Below the pieces are notes generated by a model, which saw only the letters and a list, made by a program, of their open reading frames with translations, searched no databases and had not been told where the DNA came from. Of a stretch of DNA of 64,000 bases, positions 4,186 to 22,740 are shown in pieces. The number at the start of each line of letters is the position of its first letter. Within the stretch, counting starts at the first letter, position 1. The stretch spans positions 1,716,235 to 1,780,234 of the forward strand of contig OY762634.1 of the NCBI GenBank assembly GCA_963666185.1. Direction: 5' to 3'. The translations under genes and the position numbers were made by a program. The stretch comes from Dehalococcoidia bacterium. Its GTDB lineage: Bacteria > Chloroflexota > Dehalococcoidia > Lucifugimonadales > UBA1123.

Positions 4186-5898
4186 TCAGTTCGAGACGTC
4201 CAGTTCGGTAGTCAGCATATAGTATTCCAGCATATGCGACTGCCAGTTCTTCACATGGTTGGCGTATGCGTAAATCTGCTCCGTGTAGTTTATGAACGGA
4301 TGCGCCGCGTCCTCATGGAGTATCTGCTGTATCTGCCGGAAGATGTCGTATCTGGCCTCCGTGTCGCTCAAAGGGCGCGCCTGTTCCAGCAGTTCGTCAA
4401 CCTCGGGATTGCAGTAGTTGGCATAGTTGCTGACGTCCATAGAGGAGCAGGAGTAGTCGGCGGTGAAGAAGCCCTCCGGGTCGTAGGCGTCAATGAGGTG
4501 CCCTCTGGATACGAGGAACATATCGAAGTCGCCAGCGAACACATCGTCCACCAACGCGCCCCAAGGCGCGAGCCTTATCTCAGCGCTGAATCCGGCGTCG
4601 TTGAGCATCTCGTGGATGGCGACGGACATAGCCGGGAACTCCGCGCGACTCGGGTACGTCCACAGGGATACGTTCAGTTCGCCTTCCTCGTATCCAGCGC
4701 TGGCGAGGAACTCTTTGGCTGTCTCAGGGTTGAACTCATACGCCTGGAGGTTGGAATTGACCCATGCCTCGCTCGGCGCGAACGGCCCAATGGCGGGCTG
4801 CCCGATCCCTTCCAGCACGGAGTCAACGAGGGCGCGTCGGTCAATCGCGTGCTGAGCCGCCTTTCGGACGTTGACATCCGAGAATGGCCCATTCCTGTTG
4901 TTGACATACAGGGTAACCGTTCTGGGCTGCTGCTCTCTGTATATGGTGAAATCCGAGTTGTCCATGAAGATCGGAAGCTGAGAAATCGGAAGGTGTCTCA
5001 CGAAGTCCACCTCGCCCGTTTCCAGCATCGCGGAGCGCACCACTCCGTCAGGAACGAAAAAGAACTCCGCCGCGTCAAGCGTCGCGCCGCCACCCCAATA
5101 GTCTCCGAAGCTCACCATGCTGATGCTCTCGATAGACACCTCGTCTTCGATGATGAAGGGGCCGGTTCCAGCGTCAATGACGCTTGGCGAGGCGCTGCCC
5201 GCGCCTTCATACGCCGCGGGCGTCAGGATTCCGGTGGTTGGCACGGCCAGCCTGGTTGGCAGAAGCACGTCAGGCGCGCCACTCTCGACAATCACCGTAT
5301 AGGAATCCGCGGCGGTGACGCTCTTCAGCGTGTCCTCGGTGAATCCCCTGGGCGGGTTCGGGACCCCGCGAAGATATTCGAGCGCCATGACGACGGACGC
5401 GCTATCGAAAGCGGCGCCGTCTTGGAAACTCACATCTTCCCGGAGCTTGAACTCCCAGGCGTTGCCATCTCGGAGGCTCCAGGAATCGGCGAGATAAGGC
5501 TTTATCTCGCCGTCGAAGTCAATTTTGACCAGGGTCTCCGTAACGCCTGCCCTCGACACTATGAAAGAGTCGTCTGTCTCGACAGCGCCGTTGTTCGAGG
5601 GCGCGAACGGAGCCGATGTCGTGATCTTGGATGGGCCGGTGTCGCTCTTCACAACCGGCGGCTGGGTGGCGGGCGCAGGTCTGGCAGTCGGCGCGGGGGC
5701 CGCCGTGGGGGCCGCGGGCATGGCGGTCGGAGCCGGGGCCGCAGTGGGGGCAACCTGCGCCACAGGCGCGGTTGTCGGCTGTGGCGCTGGCGAAGCGGTT
5801 TCGCTCTCGGAATCGCCGCAGGCCACGATGGCCAGGGAAAGCAGCCCTATGACGATACAGAGGCCGGCAACCCTGAGTAGCGTACGCAATTTGGTCAT
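4186..5898 (-). CDS. ABC transporter substrate-binding lipoprotein, family 5 (DppA/OppA-like)
   Basis: 570 aa. Signal peptide plus lipobox 'LAIVACGDS', a roughly 55-aa Pro/Ala/Thr linker, then family-5 SBP features. Sits upstream of the two permeases. Confidence 0.85.
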   Translation of the reverse strand: MTKLRTLLRVAGLCIVIGLLSLAIVACGDSESETASPAPQPTTAPVAQVAPTAAPAPTAMPAAPTAAPAPTARPAPATQPPVVKSDTGPSKITTSAPFAPSNNGAVETDDSFIVSRAGVTETLVKIDFDGEIKPYLADSWSLRDGNAWEFKLREDVSFQDGAAFDSASVVMALEYLRGVPNPPRGFTEDTLKSVTAADSYTVIVESGAPDVLLPTRLAVPTTGILTPAAYEGAGSASPSVIDAGTGPFIIEDEVSIESISMVSFGDYWGGGATLDAAEFFFVPDGVVRSAMLETGEVDFVRHLPISQLPIFMDNSDFTIYREQQPRTVTLYVNNRNGPFSDVNVRKAAQHAIDRRALVDSVLEGIGQPAIGPFAPSEAWVNSNLQAYEFNPETAKEFLASAGYEEGELNVSLWTYPSRAEFPAMSVAIHEMLNDAGFSAEIRLAPWGALVDDVFAGDFDMFLVSRGHLIDAYDPEGFFTADYSCSSMDVSNYANYCNPEVDELLEQARPLSDTEARYDIFRQIQQILHEDAAHPFINYTEQIYAYANHVKNWQSHMLEYYMLTTELDVSN

Positions 5899-6111
5899 TT
5901 GTTATTCCTTTCGCAATGACGATATTTAGTATCAATTAAACTCAGATAGAAATGCTACACCAATTCGCGTATCTATATCAATTGAAATTTAATATCATTT
6001 AATACACGGCGCAATCGCGCTGGCAATTCATCCGTTGAAATAGCGAAAGAGCTATGGAAGCCGCGAGGAAAGAGGTAGGTTCATAGAGCCCGGCGCAGGA
6101 AACTCGCCCTC

Positions 6112-7281
6112 TTACATAAGCCTGCTGAAGTGGGGGATGTCGCCTGCGAGGGGTTTGAGGTATTGGATGAAGGCGTCGGTGACGAAGTTGTCTGAGGGGG
6201 AGAGGTATTCTGGGGGCATGGGGCGGACTTTGCCGCCGACCTGGGAGAGGGGGGCGAGTCCTGTTCGGCATTCGTAATCGTCGCCGTCTTCGCGCTCCAG
6301 GGTGATTATTGCGTCGCGGAGGCCGTCGCGGGCGGCGGTGACTGCGGCTCTGCCTACCATCTCGGCTTCGTGGACATCGGATTCGGAGGCGGCCCACACT
6401 AGGGAGCGCTGGATGGTTCCGGGCTTTTCGTAGCGGGCGCGGACTCCGAGGGCGCGACTGACGCGGGCCGCGAGGTAGCGGGCTGGGCCGTCGTGGTATT
6501 CGTGTCCGAAGTCGTCCACGAACCAGGGGTCGGACATTGCCCCGATAACGCCGTCCGCGGAGCGGGAGTTTTCGGAGACGACGGCGACTGCGTATCCATA
6601 CCTGGCGTAGGCGTCCTGGACGCTGGCGACGAACTTGTCTTCGTCCACCAGCGTTTCGGGGACACATACCAGATGGGGAGGGTCGCGCAGGTCGCGCCGG
6701 GCAAGGGCGGACGCGGCGGCCAGCCATCCGGCGTCGCGGCCCATGACCTCGAATATGGTTATGGGAGAGGCGCCGGTGAGCGCCTCGGCGTCGAGGCCGG
6801 AACCGACTACGGCGGTGGCGACGAACCGCGCCGCGCTGCCGTAGCCCGGGCAGTGGTCGGTCAGCACCAGGTCGTTGTCAATGGTCTTGGGGACGTTTAT
6901 CACGGAGAGGTCGTAGCCTATCTCGTCGGCGCGCGTTTGGAGCGTGTGACCGGTCTCGGCGGAGTCGTTGCCGCCGATGATGAACCAGTAGCGGACGCCG
7001 CGCTTGTCGAGATAGTCGAAGATCGGCCCTACGTCGTCGTCCCTGAGTCGGCGGCGGGTGGAGCCTATGGCGGCTCCGGGGGCGTCGGCAACGCTCATCC
7101 AGAGGTCGGGCGGGACCTCGGACAGGTTTATGGCGCGGTCCCGGAGTATCCCTTCAAGTCCGTTGGGCGCGCCGTAGAGGGTTCCCGAACCAGTCTTGGC
7201 GAACTCGGACGCGATTCCGTACAGGCTGCGGTTGAGTACGTGGGTACACCCGCCGGACTGCATTACGAGCGCTGAGTTCAT
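6112..7281 (-). CDS. Phosphofructokinase, PfkA family (probably PPi-dependent)
   Basis: 389 aa. 'FIIGGNDSAETG', 'INVPKTIDNDL' and 'VMGRDAGWLA' are PFK motifs. GGNDS instead of GGDGS (Asp at the Gly104-equivalent position) suggests PPi use. Confidence 0.75.
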   Translation of the reverse strand: MNSALVMQSGGCTHVLNRSLYGIASEFAKTGSGTLYGAPNGLEGILRDRAINLSEVPPDLWMSVADAPGAAIGSTRRRLRDDDVGPIFDYLDKRGVRYWFIIGGNDSAETGHTLQTRADEIGYDLSVINVPKTIDNDLVLTDHCPGYGSAARFVATAVVGSGLDAEALTGASPITIFEVMGRDAGWLAAASALARRDLRDPPHLVCVPETLVDEDKFVASVQDAYARYGYAVAVVSENSRSADGVIGAMSDPWFVDDFGHEYHDGPARYLAARVSRALGVRARYEKPGTIQRSLVWAASESDVHEAEMVGRAAVTAARDGLRDAIITLEREDGDDYECRTGLAPLSQVGGKVRPMPPEYLSPSDNFVTDAFIQYLKPLAGDIPHFSRLM

Positions 7282-8030
7282 GTGCCCATCTTGAGCGCGA
7301 GGTCCTCGAAGTCTGAGGCCACCACGTCAATCCAGTCCTCGGGCGAGGTGTCTATCTCGCGGCGGGGGCCGTGTTCGAGCGGGCGGGGGACGAAGGCGGT
7401 CTTGAGTCCCTGCGCTCGGGCGGCTTTGAGGTCGTTCTTGTGGGCGGCGGTCATCATCACCTCGCCGGGTTCGAGTCCGAGTATGTCGGCGGCCATGAGA
7501 TAGGTTTCGGGGTCGGGCTTGTAGTGGTGGGCGAGTTCGGCTGAGAGGATGCAGTCCCAGGGCAGGCCGGCCCACTTAGCCATGTTGGTGAGCAGCGCGA
7601 CGTTGCCGTTGGATAGGGTGGCTATGACGTAGCGCTTCTTGAGGCGGGTGAGTCCGGGAGGGGAGTCGGGCCATGCGTCTAGTCTGTGCCAGGCTTTGTT
7701 GAAGTCGCGCTTTTCGTCCTCGCTCAGTCCCTCGATGCCGCGCTTGTCGAGCAGTTCGTCGAGAATCATGCGGTGGAGGTCGTCAATCCGCGTCCAGGGG
7801 AGTTCGCCGGTTCTGACCTTGTTCATGGACGGGCCGTAGCCGGAACGCCATTCGTCGGCGAATTCCGGCCAGTCCACGCCGGCAATGCCCTTGCGCTTGG
7901 CTAGGTCTTTGCCTTCGCGGGCGATGCTCATGCGCCAGTCCACGACGGTGCCGAACACGTCGAAGACCAGGGCTTTGACTTCGTTGATTAGCATATTGGG
8001 GCCTCCGAGGGAATTCCGAATTAGAGTCAC
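7278..8030 (-). CDS. Haloacid dehalogenase type II (HAD superfamily hydrolase)
   Basis: 250 aa. 'ALVFDVFGTVVDW' (nucleophile Asp motif), 'TLSNGN', 'AAHKNDLKAA'. 4-nt overlap with the pfk start. The true start may be the internal Met 'MLINEV'. Confidence 0.75.
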   Translation of the reverse strand: MTLIRNSLGGPNMLINEVKALVFDVFGTVVDWRMSIAREGKDLAKRKGIAGVDWPEFADEWRSGYGPSMNKVRTGELPWTRIDDLHRMILDELLDKRGIEGLSEDEKRDFNKAWHRLDAWPDSPPGLTRLKKRYVIATLSNGNVALLTNMAKWAGLPWDCILSAELAHHYKPDPETYLMAADILGLEPGEVMMTAAHKNDLKAARAQGLKTAFVPRPLEHGPRREIDTSPEDWIDVVASDFEDLALKMGT

Positions 8031-8152
8031 ACTATATCGCCCGGGTAGTGTATCAGAATGCTAGAAGGTGGTGGCGGGAGAAGACCGAGCCGAAATGTGA
8101 TAGACCTCGCCGGATTGGGAGCGGCGGGGTCTTTCACATGGAGATCCGTTAC

Positions 8153-18368: not shown

Positions 18369-19205
18369 TTACTCCTGAACTTCCGCCGGACGCCCGCGTC
18401 CGCGCCTGAATATCACCGCCGCCGCGAACATCAGCGTCGCTACCAGCGCCATAGCGGGGCCGGAGGGCAGGTCGGCGTGGTAGGACAGGTAAAGCCCGAT
18501 TATCGCCGAGACCACCCCGATTATCGCGCCCAGAAACATCACTCCGACAAAGCGGCGGGCTATCAGGTAGGCGGTCGCGGCGGGCGTAATCAGCATCGCC
18601 ATGACGAGCGCGATTCCGGCGGCCTGTATGCCTATCACGATGACCAGCGCCAGCAGCGTCAGCAGGATGTATTCGACCAGGCTCGTCCTGACGCCCGCGA
18701 CGGACGCGCCAACCGCGTCGTGGGTGGTGTAAACGAGTTGGCGGTGGAAGGTGTACAGACCGCCCACCACGAGTACGGTCAGACCAATCGAGATATAGAC
18801 GTCGGTTTGGGTGACGCCAAGCACCTGCCCAAGCAGAAGGTCCTCGATGTTGACGTTTATGCCGCTCGCTTTGGACAGCATGACCAGTCCCAGCGCGAAC
18901 ATTCCGGCGAACACTATGCCGATGGATGTGTCTTCGGTCAAACCCGTCCGGCGGCTCAGCGCGCCCATGATAAGCGCTATCACGATTCCGGCCGGCACCG
19001 CGGCGAAGAACGGGCTTATGCCCAGCATGAACGCGACGACCATGCCCGGGACGACCGAATGGGAAAGCGCGTCTCCCAGGAAGGCGTTCCCGCGAGTGAT
19101 TACGTAAGCGCCGAGAACCGGGCAGGTGATTCCGACAAGCGCCGACACTATCAGCGCGCGCCTCATGAAGTCGAACTGGAAAGGGTCTATCAGGTATTCG
19201 ACCAT
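18369..19205 (-). CDS. znuB: Metal (Zn/Mn) ABC transporter permease
   Basis: 278 aa. 'FMRRALIVSALVGITCPVLGAYVITRG.AFLGDALSH' is the ABC-3 family signature. Confidence 0.8.
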   Translation of the reverse strand: MVEYLIDPFQFDFMRRALIVSALVGITCPVLGAYVITRGNAFLGDALSHSVVPGMVVAFMLGISPFFAAVPAGIVIALIMGALSRRTGLTEDTSIGIVFAGMFALGLVMLSKASGINVNIEDLLLGQVLGVTQTDVYISIGLTVLVVGGLYTFHRQLVYTTHDAVGASVAGVRTSLVEYILLTLLALVIVIGIQAAGIALVMAMLITPAATAYLIARRFVGVMFLGAIIGVVSAIIGLYLSYHADLPSGPAMALVATLMFAAAVIFRRGRGRPAEVQE

Positions 19206-19218
19206 GCGACTCCCCTAA

Positions 19219-19962
19219 TCAACCGAGATGTTCTGAGGCGAGTTCCCGGACATGGGAACCGTACAGTTTTTCCAGAACGTCGGGGGTGAGCGTCTCGTCG
19301 GGCGGACCGTAGGCGCTCACGCCGCGGTTGACGCACAGCAACTTGTCGAAGCGTTCCGTCATATTCGTCAGGTCGTGAGTTGACACGAGCGCTATCCTGT
19401 CGGCGGCGACGCAAGCCTGGAGTATCTCGATTATCCCCTCCTGAGCGCCCACGTCAATGCCGCTGAACGCCTCGTCCAGCAGGATGACGCTCGCTTCCTG
19501 CGCCAGCGCGCGCGCTATCCCTACCCTCTGGCGCTGACCACCGGACATTTCAGTTACCAGCGACTCGCGATAATCCCACAGGCCAACCCTGTCGAGGGAT
19601 ATTCGCGCGAACTCCCTGTCCCGCTCGCCGGGCTGTCGGAACCATCCTATCTTCTGGTAGCGTCCCATCATAACCACGTCCAGCGCGGTGGCGGGAAAGT
19701 TCCAGTTTATATTGTCGCGCTGCGAGACATAGGCCACTCCGCCGGGCCGGGCCGCCGACCCCAACAACTCCATGTTGCCCCGGGTGACCGGCAATAGCCC
19801 GGCCACCGTCTCGAACAGCGTGCTTTTGCCCCCGCCGCTCGGCCCCAGCACGCCCAGCATCGTGTTCGGCTCCACCTCGAAGGATACGTCAGTCAGGACG
19901 GCTACCCCGCCCCGCTCGACCGTTACGTTCTCCAGCCTTATGCCCGGAGGTGAGTCGTTCAT
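19219..19962 (-). CDS. znuC: Metal ABC transporter ATP-binding protein
   Basis: 247 aa. Walker A 'GPSGGGKST', signature 'MSGGQRQRV', Walker B 'ILLDEAF'. Confidence 0.85.
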   Translation of the reverse strand: MNDSPPGIRLENVTVERGGVAVLTDVSFEVEPNTMLGVLGPSGGGKSTLFETVAGLLPVTRGNMELLGSAARPGGVAYVSQRDNINWNFPATALDVVMMGRYQKIGWFRQPGERDREFARISLDRVGLWDYRESLVTEMSGGQRQRVGIARALAQEASVILLDEAFSGIDVGAQEGIIEILQACVAADRIALVSTHDLTNMTERFDKLLCVNRGVSAYGPPDETLTPDVLEKLYGSHVRELASEHLG

Positions 19963-19987: not shown

Positions 19988-21160
19988 TTACTCCAACGCC
20001 TCGACTATGAGCGACACGTTGGTCCGAATCATCTCGATGTAAGTCTCCGCGCCGTCGCCTTCCGCGCTGAGCGATTCGGAGTGCAGCTTGACGAGCGTCG
20101 CGCCGGCCTCCGACGCCACCGTGGCCGCCAGACGCTCGCTTATCGTCACCTCTCCGAACACGGCGGGGACGCCGTACCCTTCGACCTTGAGGCTCAACCG
20201 GGCTATGTCGTCCGCCGACGGCTCCGCCTCGGTCGCGGTGGACAGAATCACGCCCAGCACCTTGAATCCATAAGCGTCCGCGAAATAGCCCATGCTGTCG
20301 TGCGACGTCACCAGCAGCCTGCGCTCTTCGGGAATTCGCGCTACCCGATCCACAATCCATGAATGAAGTTCGTCTAGCTGGGCGCTGTACGATTCGGCGT
20401 TGCTCCGGTAGGTCTCCGCGCCGGGCGGGTCCAGTACGCTGAGCCGCGCGGATATGTCCCACACCGCCTTCTTCACCCGGAGCGGGTCGTGCCAGAAGTG
20501 GGGGTCAAGCGGGCCATGTTCGTGGTCGTGATCGGCGTCGTCATTCTCGTGGTCGTGATCATGGTCTGCGTCGCCATCTTCATTCTCGTGGTCGTGATCG
20601 GCGTCGTCATTCTCGTGGTCGTGATCATGGTCTGCGTCGCCATCTTCATGCTCATGATCCGCGTCGGCGTCCTCGTGGTCATGGTCGTCCGCGTGAGCGT
20701 CGTGGATTTCCACGAACTCTATGGGGTCAACCACATCGCCCAATTCGACGACCGTCGAAGGGTCGCGGGCCGCGTTCTTGACAAGCTCCTCAAGCCAGTG
20801 CGCTTCCAGTCTCAGCCCGATAGTCAGCGCCAGGTCGGCCTCGGCTATCTCAGCCACCGCGCGCGGGCCGGGCTGGAAGGTGTGCGGATCCGAACCTATG
20901 GGCATCAGGCTGGTCACCTCCACGCGGTCGCCGCCGATGTTCTCAACCCAGTCTCCGATGATATTGAGGCTGGTCACCACCTTCACCGGCTCTGCCGGTT
21001 CGGTATCCGGCTGAGCGGGTGTCGGGACGGTACGCGGCGTCTGAGTCGCCGCGCTCGACGGCGCGGGTTCGGGGGAATCGTCGGAGCAGGCGAACATGAA
21101 GAAAAGCAACCCAACCGCGATTACCTTCATACACAGAGATTTAGAGACGATAGGGATCAT
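19988..21160 (-). CDS. znuA: Metal ABC substrate-binding lipoprotein with long His/Asp/Glu-rich loop (ZnuA-like)
   Basis: 390 aa. Lipobox 'MFACSDDS', PT-rich linker, cluster-9 SBP core 'DPHFWHDP' and 'SHDSMGYFA', and a roughly 65-aa loop 'HDAHADDHDHEDADADHEHEDGDADHDHDHENDD...'. The start may be the internal 'MKVIAV' (21130). Confidence 0.8.
   Translation of the reverse strand: MIPIVSKSLCMKVIAVGLLFFMFACSDDSPEPAPSSAATQTPRTVPTPAQPDTEPAEPVKVVTSLNIIGDWVENIGGDRVEVTSLMPIGSDPHTFQPGPRAVAEIAEADLALTIGLRLEAHWLEELVKNAARDPSTVVELGDVVDPIEFVEIHDAHADDHDHEDADADHEHEDGDADHDHDHENDDADHDHENEDGDADHDHDHENDDADHDHEHGPLDPHFWHDPLRVKKAVWDISARLSVLDPPGAETYRSNAESYSAQLDELHSWIVDRVARIPEERRLLVTSHDSMGYFADAYGFKVLGVILSTATEAEPSADDIARLSLKVEGYGVPAVFGEVTISERLAATVASEAGATLVKLHSESLSAEGDGAETYIEMIRTNVSLIVEALE
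20521..20648 (-). repeat. Perfect 62-nt core tandem duplication (66-nt period) inside the znuA His-rich loop
   Basis: 20521-20582 and 20587-20648 are identical. Each encodes 'DGDADHDHDHENDDADHDHENE'. Confidence 0.8.
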
Positions 21161-21340
21161 ATATCTGCGCCATTTCCCTTGCGCTTGTTCCAGCGCAGGT
21201 TATCATAGCACAGGCACGAATATGTCCATAGTTATATTGCGCGCCCTTGAGGATAATGGTCTTGTTCCATGTGGAGACATGGATCATCGCGAGGCTGTCG
21301 GAGCGGACGCAATGAGCGTGGCCATGACGAGCGCGTTCTG

Positions 21341-21508
21341 TCAGGCTTGGCGCGCCTGCTGAAGCAAGTGACCGACATGGTGGTCTTCAGCGCATCCTTC
21401 GACCGACTGCTCCGCCTGGATGGTGACGTGAGCTATAAGGCTGCTGCCGCTCGCGTCCCTGAAGTCGTGAGCGTGTCCTCTGTGGTCGTCGTGGCTGCGC
21501 TGAGTCAT
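21341..21508 (-). CDS. Candidate small His-rich ORF (55 aa)
   Basis: Hand translation: 'MTQRSHDDHRGHAHDFRDASGSSLIAHVTIQAEQSVEGCAEDHHVGHLLQQARQA*'. GGGAGA lies 2 nt upstream of the ATG. Located between the His-rich peptide gene and znuA. Below the ORF-track length cut-off. Confidence 0.25.
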   Translation of the reverse strand: MTQRSHDDHRGHAHDFRDASGSSLIAHVTIQAEQSVEGCAEDHHVGHLLQQARQA

Positions 21509-21590
21509 AGTCTCCCAAGACAGCTAATGGGGTTGGAGATTGGATTCGCCCCGTCAGTGATGGCGCTGACGGGGATGTTCGTCTCTAGCG

Positions 21591-21788
21591 CTAGGCTGCG
21601 TGGTGTTCGTGCTCGTCGCACTCGTGGATGTCGTGGACGTGGGCATGATGTTCATGCTCGTCGCACTCGTGGACGTCGTGGACGTGACCATGCTCGTCGG
21701 CGTGGTGTTCGTGTTCGTCGCACTCGTGGGTGTCGTGTTCGTGAGCGTGGTGTTCGTGTTCGTCGCATTCGTGGATGTCGCGCGGCAT
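21591..21788 (-). CDS. His/Glu/Asp/Cys-rich repeat peptide (putative metal-binding protein)
   Basis: 65 aa with 23 His and 4 Cys. Four copies of 'HECDEHEHHA'. Strong RBS GGAGGTG 4-5 nt upstream of the ATG. Same strand as, and upstream of, the znu operon. Confidence 0.5.
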   Translation of the reverse strand: MPRDIHECDEHEHHAHEHDTHECDEHEHHADEHGHVHDVHECDEHEHHAHVHDIHECDEHEHHAA

Positions 21789-21880
21789 AAATCACCTCCA
21801 GATTATCTGACCGCAGGTTCCTGAACGGATACTCGATAGACCTGTATTATCTCACATATTGAGTCATTTCACAATGTTTT

Positions 21881-21977
21881 ACACTACTGATAATATATAT
21901 CAAATTGGAAAAACACTACTATCGTATGCCAACGCGCTACTGAGAATGTATATCACCCTGATGAAAAACGCTACTAC
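21881..21977. promoter_or_regulatory. Four direct repeats (A)AAC(A/G)CTACT in an AT-rich divergent intergenic region
   Basis: 'acactactga' 21881, 'aaaaacactacta' 21909, 'gcgctactga' 21934, 'aaaaacgctacta' 21964. Lies between the divergent genes starting at 21788(-) and 22096(+). Confidence 0.3.
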
Positions 21978-22095: not shown

Positions 22096-22740
22096 ATGAC
22101 GACCATTATCGAAAACTCGGAGGACTTTCTCCGCGCGATGCGTGAAAACGACGAATTTCGCCTGGCGGCGAGGCGAGAGTTGCTGAGCGAAGAACTTCTG
22201 GCGCTGCCCCAGCGCTTCGCGGAGTACTCGCAAACCACGGACAGGAAACTGGACAGGCTGAGCGACAACATAGGCGAGGTGAAGGGGCCGTTCATGGAGA
22301 GAGCGGCCCGCGAAGACGCGCCTATCATCGCCAGCGAAATGGGGCTGGTCTGGAAGAAGTCCCTGGAACGGAATGAAGTGGTCGAAATCGCCGATGAAGC
22401 GAACCGAAAAAGTCTGGCGTCCGGTGTCTCGCGTGATAATATGCGAACGTTCCGACGCGCCGACCTGGTGATCGAAGCGGTGGATGATGGCGGGCGTATC
22501 TGCTACATCGCGGTGGAAATCTCCTATACGGCGGATAGCCGGGACACCATCAGGGCAATACGCCACGCCGAGTTCCTCACTCGGTTCACCGGAATTCCCG
22601 CCTACGCGGCCATCTCAAGCGTTCATATAGATAACAGGATCAAGGACATCCTCACGGAGGACAGTCCAACGCCGCTCGACGTCAATCAGGAAACAAAGGT
22701 GTTCTGGTCGAGATTGCCGGAGTTGGAGCCGCCTGAGTAG
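22096..22740 (+). CDS. Hypothetical protein with coiled-coil N-terminus and PD-(D/E)xK-like C-terminal domain
   Basis: Start moved to the ATG at 22096 (AGGGGGA upstream). 'RADLVIEAVDDGGRICYIAVEISYTADSRDTIRAIRHAEFL' has the D...E.S/K spacing of restriction-endonuclease-fold proteins. Confidence 0.45.
   Translation: MTTIIENSEDFLRAMRENDEFRLAARRELLSEELLALPQRFAEYSQTTDRKLDRLSDNIGEVKGPFMERAAREDAPIIASEMGLVWKKSLERNEVVEIADEANRKSLASGVSRDNMRTFRRADLVIEAVDDGGRICYIAVEISYTADSRDTIRAIRHAEFLTRFTGIPAYAAISSVHIDNRIKDILTEDSPTPLDVNQETKVFWSRLPELEPPE

Follow-up and report, generated by a model that had tools for sequence, protein, structure and literature searches.

A gene for a 65-aa protein of extreme composition lies on the minus strand of the window (the whole 64,000-nt stretch of DNA analysed), upstream of znuA-znuC-znuB, which are read from the same strand (Table 1), as an earlier note on this DNA had stated. 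The product, MPRDIHECDEHEHHAHEHDTHECDEHEHHADEHGHVHDVHECDEHEHHAHVHDIHECDEHEHHAA, contains 23 histidines (35.4%), 4 cysteines, 14 glutamates and 9 aspartates, and is organized around four HECDEHEHHA units whose first residues are 6, 21, 40 and 55; a recount reproduced the composition and the four repeats given in that note, and its GGAGGTG ribosome-binding site was found at 21799→21793. Each repeat carries one cysteine, no two cysteines are adjacent, and the longest run of histidines is two residues. The gene is present as a single copy in the 3.5-Mb source genome, where, among 12,524 ATG-initiated open reading frames (ORFs) of at least 50 aa, its histidine content of 35% is followed by 19% for the runner-up. 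Neither a signal peptide nor a transmembrane (TM) segment was found in the protein. The promoter-like site upstream of the gene is a consensus-scan prediction and not a proof of function, and the hairpin downstream of its stop codon is not followed by a T-run.

Table 1. Features of the mini-protein locus, in window positions
Feature	Position	Strand	Remarks
znuB, ABC-3 permease	18369..19205	minus	PF00950, E=2e-72
znuC, ABC ATPase	19219..19962	minus	PF00005, E=1e-24
znuA, zinc ABC substrate-binding protein with His/Asp-rich loop	19988..21160	minus (21160→19988)	PF01297, E=5e-78
Relic of a ZitB/CzcD-type CDF gene (55-codon ORF)	21341..21508	minus (21508→21341)	in-frame internal deletion
GC-rich hairpin, 9 bp (CCCCGTCAG / CTGACGGGG)	21549..21574	minus	16 nt past the stop of the 65-aa gene
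His/Cys/acidic repeat protein gene	21591..21788	minus (21788→21591)	65 aa; span includes stop codon
Shine-Dalgarno (SD) sequence GGAGGTG	21793..21799	minus	4 nt 5′ of the ATG of the 65-aa ORF
Promoter-like site	21846..21874	minus	-35 TTGTGA, 17-nt spacer, extended -10 TGaGATAAT; consensus scan
Fur-family (Zur-like) box TGATAATATATATCA	21888..21902		exact TGATA-N5-TATCA, 13 nt upstream of -35-like TTGTGA
Second, weaker box TGAGAATGTATATCA	21941..21955		9/10 specified positions

The three znu genes form one operon with all the components of a ZnuABC importer; the best NCBIfam match of znuA is AztC, below the cut-off. The 55-codon ORF between the peptide gene and znuA had been read as a second, independent His-rich peptide. 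The ORF exists and contains the residues quoted from it, and alignment identifies it as a deleted CDF gene: it matches residues 86-117 and 381-408 of a 412-aa orthologue, the middle being missing, and these two parts correspond to the end of the His tail (...HAH..R.AS..SLI) and to HVTIQ.EQSV..C.EDHHV.HL, respectively. None of the six TM helices and little of the C-terminal domain is left after the deletion, and the DNA matches to the two CDF ends, which are about 1.3 kb apart in a related genome (G011), are about 150 nt apart in the window. The same deletion was found in none of the 25 relatives searched. A functional CDF was rejected for this ORF, which has no six TM helices, HxxxD sites, ZT_dimer domain or Pfam match and is a homologous remnant. 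The CDF that follows the peptide gene in relatives is about 400-470 aa long and comprises Cation_efflux and ZT_dimer domains preceded by a very long (HDHxxH)n N-terminal tail; the orthologous CDF carries HMLTD in TM2 and HVLAD in TM5, an HxxxD/HxxxD pattern that we take to be the characteristic site of exporters of Zn, Co and Cd, ZitB and CzcD among them. One other CDF is encoded in the source genome (C1:1909508) and is more distant (47-48% identity). As a result of the deletion, the peptide gene of the window now adjoins znuA.

Coding status and repeat architecture

Orthologues with 77-90% identity to the 65-aa protein occur in 12 of 24 genomes of the same genus and extend to three further families within the order; in an alignment with 14 orthologues, the window protein is 75-86% identical to them and 44 columns are invariant. 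A scan for the HECDEHE pattern in a sample of one genome per GTDB species gave 157 places confirmed by tblastn, and the best 80 of these all belong to Chloroflexota metagenome-assembled genomes (MAGs) of the Dehalococcoidia, the SAR202 cluster and the Tepidiformaceae, with sponge-type bin names borne by several carriers. In an even sample of the class, carriers amount to 41 of 401 genomes and 10 of 223 genera. No homologue outside Chloroflexota was found in the pattern scan or in the searches of protein libraries.

Pairwise Nei-Gojobori comparisons gave dN/dS values of 0.015-0.06 (pS 0.37-0.71) in homogeneous orthologue groups and 0.17-0.34 in same-length groups that mix subfamilies. Of the two unconstrained core positions of the repeat, one is D and the other is E, each in 378 of 379 units; the mean entropy is 0.78 bit at the third position, compared with 0.03 at the first and 0.07 at the second. 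The number of repeats shifts by whole units only, with the frame kept across 2-10 repeats, and the start and stop of the family genes are conserved across orders. In most of the 84 distinct family genes, a GGAGG-type SD sequence is visible within 20 nt 5′ of the ATG (judged by eye, uncounted). The similarity of the DNA to same-genus genomes is limited to the peptide coding region and the CDF fragments. The earlier note had raised the alternative that the DNA repeat alone might be conserved; the dN/dS values of 0.015-0.06 point to conservation of the ORF. On these comparisons of sequence, the 65-aa ORF is a real, strongly conserved protein-coding gene.

A chance frame over a DNA repeat, or a true product encoded antisense by a 173-aa Arg-rich ORF (21269-21790, plus strand), would be in keeping with the low complexity and repetitiveness of the sequence, with the absence of the peptide, the CDF relic and two antisense ORFs from a collection of 15 billion proteins in an exact look-up, and with the small number of relatives, 16 and 27, in two large protein libraries. 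The low dN/dS in the 65-aa frame, the SD sequences before most family members, the conserved starts and stops with changes always of whole repeat units, and the confinement of DNA identity to the coding region argue against this reading, which appears strongly disfavoured and is scarcely credible.

The family unit is HxHDxHECD(E/D)HEHH, 14-15 residues long, and units are set in pairs across a short turn that is usually GDEPG. Members contain 2, 4, 6, 8 or 10 units, with a few odd-numbered exceptions, and range from 35 to 167 aa; a member is recognized by at least two HECD(E/D/G/T)HEHH units in a small ORF with a short linker between the pairs, and the window protein has four such units. Each unit offers one Cys, approximately six His and three or four carboxylates, so that a pair of units provides 2 Cys, approximately 12 His and approximately 8 carboxylates. 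Cys, His and carboxylate ligands are no guide to whether the metal is Zn, Ni, Co, Cd or Cu. At three positions that are at least 90% conserved in its 14 closest orthologues, the window copy has a different residue (H3R, G30A and P33H), and its turn reads ADEHG in place of the usual GDEPG; similar linkers, AGEH(I/L/M)H, are found in other subfamilies. With its CDF partner gone, the window copy may be taking on a role tied to ZnuABC or starting to decay.

Neither of the small ORFs matched a Pfam or NCBIfam model at E≤0.1, and a sequence profile search of the PDB with the 65-aa protein found no relative. None of the 16 and 27 relatives in the two protein libraries is named, the 27 being the yield from 1.84 billion cluster representatives, and no description of an HECDxHEHH repeat family was found in the literature searched. 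The initial impression that the peptide belongs to no recognized named family was thus upheld by the Pfam, NCBIfam, PDB and literature searches. The best reading is that the HECDxHEHH repeat mini-proteins form an unnamed family that is new by sequence and would be, in function, of a known kind, namely the small His/Cys-rich metal-sequestering proteins. AlphaFold2, run with an alignment of 15 sequences, gave a pLDDT of 47 and no secondary structure for the peptide, so a fold search was not worthwhile; the predicted disorder fits an apo metal-binding peptide that orders only around metal.

Zur-like boxes and transcription signals

The two boxes upstream of the peptide gene fall within a cluster of CTACT-containing direct repeats (21880-21976), two of which prove to be the boxes' own extended left arms. 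The box is a 15-bp inverted repeat, TGATA-N5-TATCA, with the extended consensus TACTGATAC-N3-GTATCAGTA. Two regions had been singled out beforehand as places for a Zur box: the one upstream of the peptide gene (21789-21900) yielded the exact box at 21888-21902, and the one before znuA (21161-21340) contained no Zur-type box with a position weight matrix (PWM) score of at least 4 bits. Boxes matching at least 9 of the 10 specified positions occur in 33 of 84 peptide upstream regions, compared with 1.1% of shuffles, and usually lie 95-125 nt 5′ of the peptide ATG; approximately 60% of the peptide upstream regions have no box. Exact sites number five genome-wide against 0.8 expected, and the strongest PWM matches precede a second znuA (two boxes), a Peripla_BP_2 binding protein and an SBP_bac_5 binding protein; the ABC operon of the latter (NikA/Opp-type) lies within the window and is preceded by a box at 5917-5937. 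In relatives, a box stands before znuA at seven loci (L108, L114, L115, L044, L045, L094 and L110). Because boxes are located before znuA genes both here and in relatives, and because three Fur-family genes are present in the source genome, TGATA-N5-TATCA is read as a Fur-family operator, most probably of the Zur type. A box is absent from the Fur-headed ZnuA-like operon (C1:414245) and from the other CDF gene (C1:1909508) of this genome. Further PWM hits at C1:1880360, 2345329, 1609376 and 836253 lie inside or beside unrelated genes and were taken as chance.

A Zur box normally indicates induction under zinc starvation. As an observation that counts against a buffer for excess zinc, the Zur box fits a role in zinc acquisition or allocation better.

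In Streptomyces coelicolor, Zn-Zur switches on zitB, a CDF gene, by binding just 5′ of the -35 element, and at high zinc its footprint extends further upstream (PMC5472717). The zitB system resembles the loci described here in its ZitB-type exporter, in the Fur-family 15-bp palindrome upstream of -35 and in the presence of the box also at znuA (PMC5472717), whereas no small His/Cys protein belongs to the Streptomyces system. The subgroup of the family with 42-aa products has two boxes, and exactly 8 nt separate the proximal one from a downstream TTGCCA/TTGTCA hexamer, which is the spacing of zitB activation in S. coelicolor; the corresponding gap is 13 nt in the window, the promoter elements being predicted in both.

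As no box was found directly before znuA in the window, znuABC would possibly be read from the peptide promoter, and the peptide gene and znuABC may thus be co-transcribed in the source genome. Terminator-like hairpins followed by a T-run were identified after the peptide stop in 31 of 84 loci, compared with 1.7% of shuffles; the combination of its own SD sequence and a frequent terminator fits the production of an abundant binder, followed by that of a scarcer transporter. When scanned against Rfam, neither the window region nor any of six related loci gave a match to a riboswitch, to the NiCo/czcD motif or to any further known RNA close to the gene.

Genomic partners across relatives

The neighbourhood of the peptide gene was compared among 77 species-representative loci, with a reach of 6 kb. 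A ZitB/CzcD-type CDF exporter gene is the next gene in 59 of these, directly downstream on the same strand in 46 and convergent in 13; the CDF gene lies elsewhere in the locus in 2 and in another arrangement in 1, and is absent within 6 kb in 15. znuA/B genes occur within 6 kb of the peptide gene in 18 of the 77 loci, in three arrangements: divergent and upstream of the peptide-CDF pair; downstream of the CDF on the same strand (L108, L114 and L115); or upstream, with the peptide gene placed after znuB. The search for similar peptides beside znu loci that the first reading of this DNA had suggested was therefore successful in 18 of 77 loci, and znuA did not prove to be the main partner: the primary genomic partner of the family is the CDF exporter, and adjacency to znuA is secondary. 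Some stand-alone copies of the peptide gene have housekeeping or transposon-rich surroundings.

The two genes also tend to be retained or lost together. Among the 41 nearest genomes, an intact orthologous CDF (at least 60% identity) is present in 13, and the peptide accompanies it in 12; in the 13th (G023), 159 nt lie between the start of the CDF gene and a contig end, and the peptide gene may be located beyond it. Two more genomes without the peptide have decayed CDFs, one truncated (G002) and one in two pieces (G022), and the peptide is kept without a CDF in the source genome (G000), G013 and G019. Moreover, in one locus (L082), a two-unit module is inserted in frame within the N-terminal tail of the CDF, between the start region and the HDH repeats, and a separate gene for a 136-aa peptide lies upstream of the fused CDF. 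A HECDxHEHH module is also fused inside a RecQ-like protein (L095).

A small ORF that lies upstream of a CDF gene on the same strand in 46 of 77 loci, and that in many loci is followed 15-30 nt past its stop by a terminator-like hairpin (31 of 84 in total), could be a regulatory leader peptide, in which ribosome pausing on the His/Cys repeats would control the downstream terminator and hence the expression of the CDF or znuABC genes. This explanation is very improbable: purifying selection extends over every residue, including the turn, and is not confined to regulatory codons; lengths range from 35 to 167 aa; the module is fused inside two larger proteins, the L082 CDF and the L095 RecQ-like protein; 28 of the 77 loci have no same-strand downstream CDF; and the window hairpin has no T-run. 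A transcription-attenuation leader was rejected on the last two of these points together with the selection on the whole sequence. A precursor of a ribosomally synthesized and post-translationally modified peptide (RiPP) or of a metallophore was likewise rejected, as no MbnBC, YcaO or radical SAM-type maturation domains were found in the window or the sampled loci.

Proposed function and comparison with known systems

The link in gene order, the pattern of co-loss and the fusion with a ZitB-type CDF lead us to regard the protein, with fair though incomplete confidence, as a cytosolic Zn(II)-binding buffer that is probably also a relay to the CDF exporter. The placement of the gene within zinc-homeostasis loci agrees with the buffering or chaperone peptide suggested in the earlier note. 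The apo-protein would be disordered and fold round several Zn(II) ions, giving high-capacity buffering of cytosolic zinc by a mini-protein, and Zn(II) would then probably be passed on to the ZitB/CzcD-type CDF encoded by the following gene, at its His-rich cytosolic tail. The occurrence of the peptide with ZnuABC and alone points to a buffering role independent of the CDF. In the source genome, the CDF partner has been destroyed, and the intact peptide gene, with its SD sequence, promoter-like site and two Zur-like boxes, is now placed directly upstream of znuABC. We infer zinc as the metal, the binding of several ions, the hand-off and the direction of control by Zur from sequence and gene context.

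The regulatory and positional data can also be arranged into a role in zinc scarcity, in which a Zur-repressed, starvation-induced protein serves as a cytosolic acceptor, reservoir or allocator that takes Zn(II) from ZnuBC and shares it out, in the manner of Zur-regulated COG0523 chaperones. Zur-like boxes are found upstream of the peptide gene in 33 of 84 loci, including the window; the gene of the 71-aa subgroup lies downstream of znuB on the znuABC strand (e.g., L071, L077, L079 and L105), and the peptide gene follows znuB by 170-320 nt in L044, L045 and L112; the window gene precedes znuABC with no separate box before znuA; and the peptide persists without a CDF in three genomes. On the other side, the exporter outnumbers the importer as a partner (59 versus 18 of 77 loci), L082 has the module fused into the tail of the exporter, and loci with the order peptide-CDF-znuABC have the box ahead of znuA, not of the peptide gene. 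Furthermore, the boxes lie upstream of, not over, the -35-like elements, a geometry known for activation (PMC5472717). We therefore judge a scarcity role unlikely.

A store or detoxifier with the same architecture for another metal, whether Ni(II), Co(II), Cd(II) or Cu(I), as Hpn is for nickel, is improbable. In its favour, the ligand set has no specificity for one metal, Co and Cd are further substrates of CzcD-type HD-HD CDFs, and the same box precedes the SBP_bac_5 (NikA/Opp-type) operon of the window (5917-5937). The recurrent neighbours, however, are ZnuABC-type importers (PF01297), no urease, hydrogenase, cobalamin or copper genes recur near the peptide loci examined, and the Rfam scan yielded neither a NiCo riboswitch nor any different known element.

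A narrower form of the favoured buffer-and-relay explanation, drawn by analogy, is that the mini-protein might be a dedicated zinc metallochaperone for the CDF exporter, a zinc counterpart of the CopZ-CopA pair. It would dock onto the His-rich tail and hand over Zn(II), the module being either free or fused, and in some lineages the whole unit would be activated by Zur from the box upstream of -35. We put this forward only tentatively, as a possibility that is more doubtful than probable; the 15 of 77 loci without a CDF and the 13 convergent ones indicate that a strict role as a chaperone for the CDF cannot be universal. As in the present loci, the CopZ-CopA system has a gene for a small soluble metal-binder beside an exporter gene, and the exporter can itself carry the module as its N-terminal domain (a Rosetta-stone fusion). 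CopZ, unlike the present peptide, has a ferredoxin-like fold and an MxCxxC motif and handles Cu(I) for P-type ATPases. We know of no zinc chaperone described for a CDF transporter, and none was found in the literature searched.

Among His-rich proteins, the nearest parallels are Hpn and Hpn-2 of Helicobacter pylori, which function in Ni storage and are, like the present protein, approximately 60 aa long, cytosolic, composed of more than one-third His, with few Cys and many acidic residues, devoid of an enzymatic domain and presumed to bind or buffer multiple ions. Hpn contains poly-His runs and paired-Cys pentapeptides, whereas the present family has the strict 9-residue HECDxHEHH, with a single Cys, arranged in pairs round the GDEPG turn; the partner here is a CDF exporter or ZnuABC, which points to zinc rather than nickel and urease, and the taxon is Dehalococcoidia. 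Membership of the Hpn or Hpn-like group was rejected, since His runs in the protein do not exceed two residues, its Cys are never adjacent, and no homologue was found outside Chloroflexota; Hpn was compared by description.

Metallothioneins are known from few bacteria. Those of the SmtA/BmtA type (PF02069) resemble the present protein as small, cytosolic, zinc-sequestering products of zinc-responsive loci with a disordered apo-form. SmtA is dominated by Cys (a Zn4Cys9His2 cluster) and regulated by SmtB, of the ArsR family, in contrast to the dominance of His and carboxylates, the one Cys per 15 residues and the Fur-family box found here. Membership of PF02069 was rejected, as no Pfam or NCBIfam match was obtained at E≤0.1 and the protein has 4 Cys in 65 aa against a core of approximately 9 Cys. 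The His-rich tails and loops of CDF/ZnT proteins and the His loop of ZnuA share the composition of the peptide and a presumed role in Zn(II) capture beside a transporter; the present protein differs from the CDF tails in being free-standing, with its own SD sequence and often its own terminator, and in its invariant Cys, which is missing from (HDHxxH)n tails. What appears to be new here is a distinct repeat grammar and a partnership with a CDF, neither found described in the literature searched, in proteins for which no sequence relationship to metallothioneins or Hpn was detected.

The buffering of cytosolic zinc and its delivery to exporters are poorly understood in bacteria. In this respect, the family is attractive for its compactness (35-167 aa), its sharply defined motif and its close association with one CDF clade, in gene order as in phyletic distribution, and the natural fusion with a CDF makes the hypothesis of a hand-off directly testable. 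The dense His/Cys/carboxylate repeat could also serve as a metal-binding tag. The family is largely invisible to annotation: the few relatives in protein libraries and the absence of the window copy from the protein collection indicate that small-ORF-aware annotation of Chloroflexota MAGs is needed to see it. The distribution of the family is patchy and several carriers have bin names of sponge type, so that adaptation to the metal regime inside a host may be reflected here.

Fur-family boxes in the window

Four direct repeats of the form (A)AC(A/G)CTACT(A/G) were identified upstream of the gene for the 65-aa His/Cys/acidic repeat peptide, and the extended left arms of the two Zur-like boxes, Fur-family 15-bp palindromes of the form TGATA-N5-TATCA, constitute two of these four CTACT repeats; the remaining two may be half-sites. 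The sites form an array that extends over ~100 bp upstream from the promoter-like site, reminiscent of the Zur footprint that spreads upstream at zitB of Streptomyces coelicolor (PMC5472717). A divergent 214-aa ORF in this region gave no match to Pfam or NCBIfam.

A strong copy of the Fur-family box found before the peptide gene, with the core CGATATTTAGTATCA, is also present at a gene for an SBP_bac_5 (NikA/Opp-type) binding protein, near which further GATA/TATC half-sites are located. The SBP_bac_5 operon may serve metal or metallophore uptake and may belong to the same regulon as the peptide gene.

Coordinates of the features described (C1 and C4, contigs of the genome concerned)
Feature	Location	Strand	Remark
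SBP_bac_5 gene	window 5898->4186	-	Fur-family box 19-39 nt upstream
Fur-family box	window 5917-5937
GATA/TATC half-sites	window 5960-5998
znuA tandem duplication	window 20515-20671
Direct repeats	window 21880-21976		at 21880, 21912, about 21934, 21967
Divergent ORF	window 22096-22740
Second ZnuA-type gene	own genome C1:2572679-2575195		outside window
Third ZnuA-like operon	own genome C1:414245-417484		outside window
Truncated CDF	G002 C1:1913016-1913636
Split CDF	G022 C4:2807084-2807926
CDF ORF with module	L082, OY763089.1, about 5860-7300
RecQ-like ORF with module	L095, OY282371.1, about 5943-8100

ZnuA-type loci of the genome

The His/Asp loop of znuA in the window is lengthened by the tandem duplication of 66 nt within it (95% match, 2.1-2.4 copies). 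Elsewhere, the genome encodes a second ZnuA-type protein, about 800 aa long; znuC and znuB come after its gene, and a pair of Zur-like boxes, including the perfect TGATACATAGTATCA, lies before it. The PF01297 domain of this protein is interrupted by an insertion that, by eye, looks beta-propeller/AztD-like. The third ABC operon of the ZnuA-like type is more distant (33% identity) and begins with a gene for a Fur-family regulator; the TGATA-N5-TATCA box is absent upstream of this operon, where an inverted repeat of another kind, TATTCGC-N4-GCGAATA, can be seen.

Probable decay, and grafting, of the module

In two genomes of the same genus in which the peptide is absent, the orthologous gene for the CDF (ZitB/CzcD-type) zinc exporter is truncated (G002) or in two pieces (G022), which suggests that the peptide-CDF module decayed independently more than once. 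At L082, a related locus, the N-terminal tail of the CDF ORF holds one in-frame two-unit HECDxHEHH module, so that peptide and CDF are naturally fused in this ORF; about 660 nt 5′ of it there is also a separate gene for a 136-aa peptide. At L095, the two-unit module HDIHECDEHEHHGDHPEYERDIHECDTHEHHAH lies within a RecQ-like helicase ORF, inserted directly past the DEAH / WGH.FRPEY region, and the HECDxHEHH module is therefore graftable into unrelated proteins.
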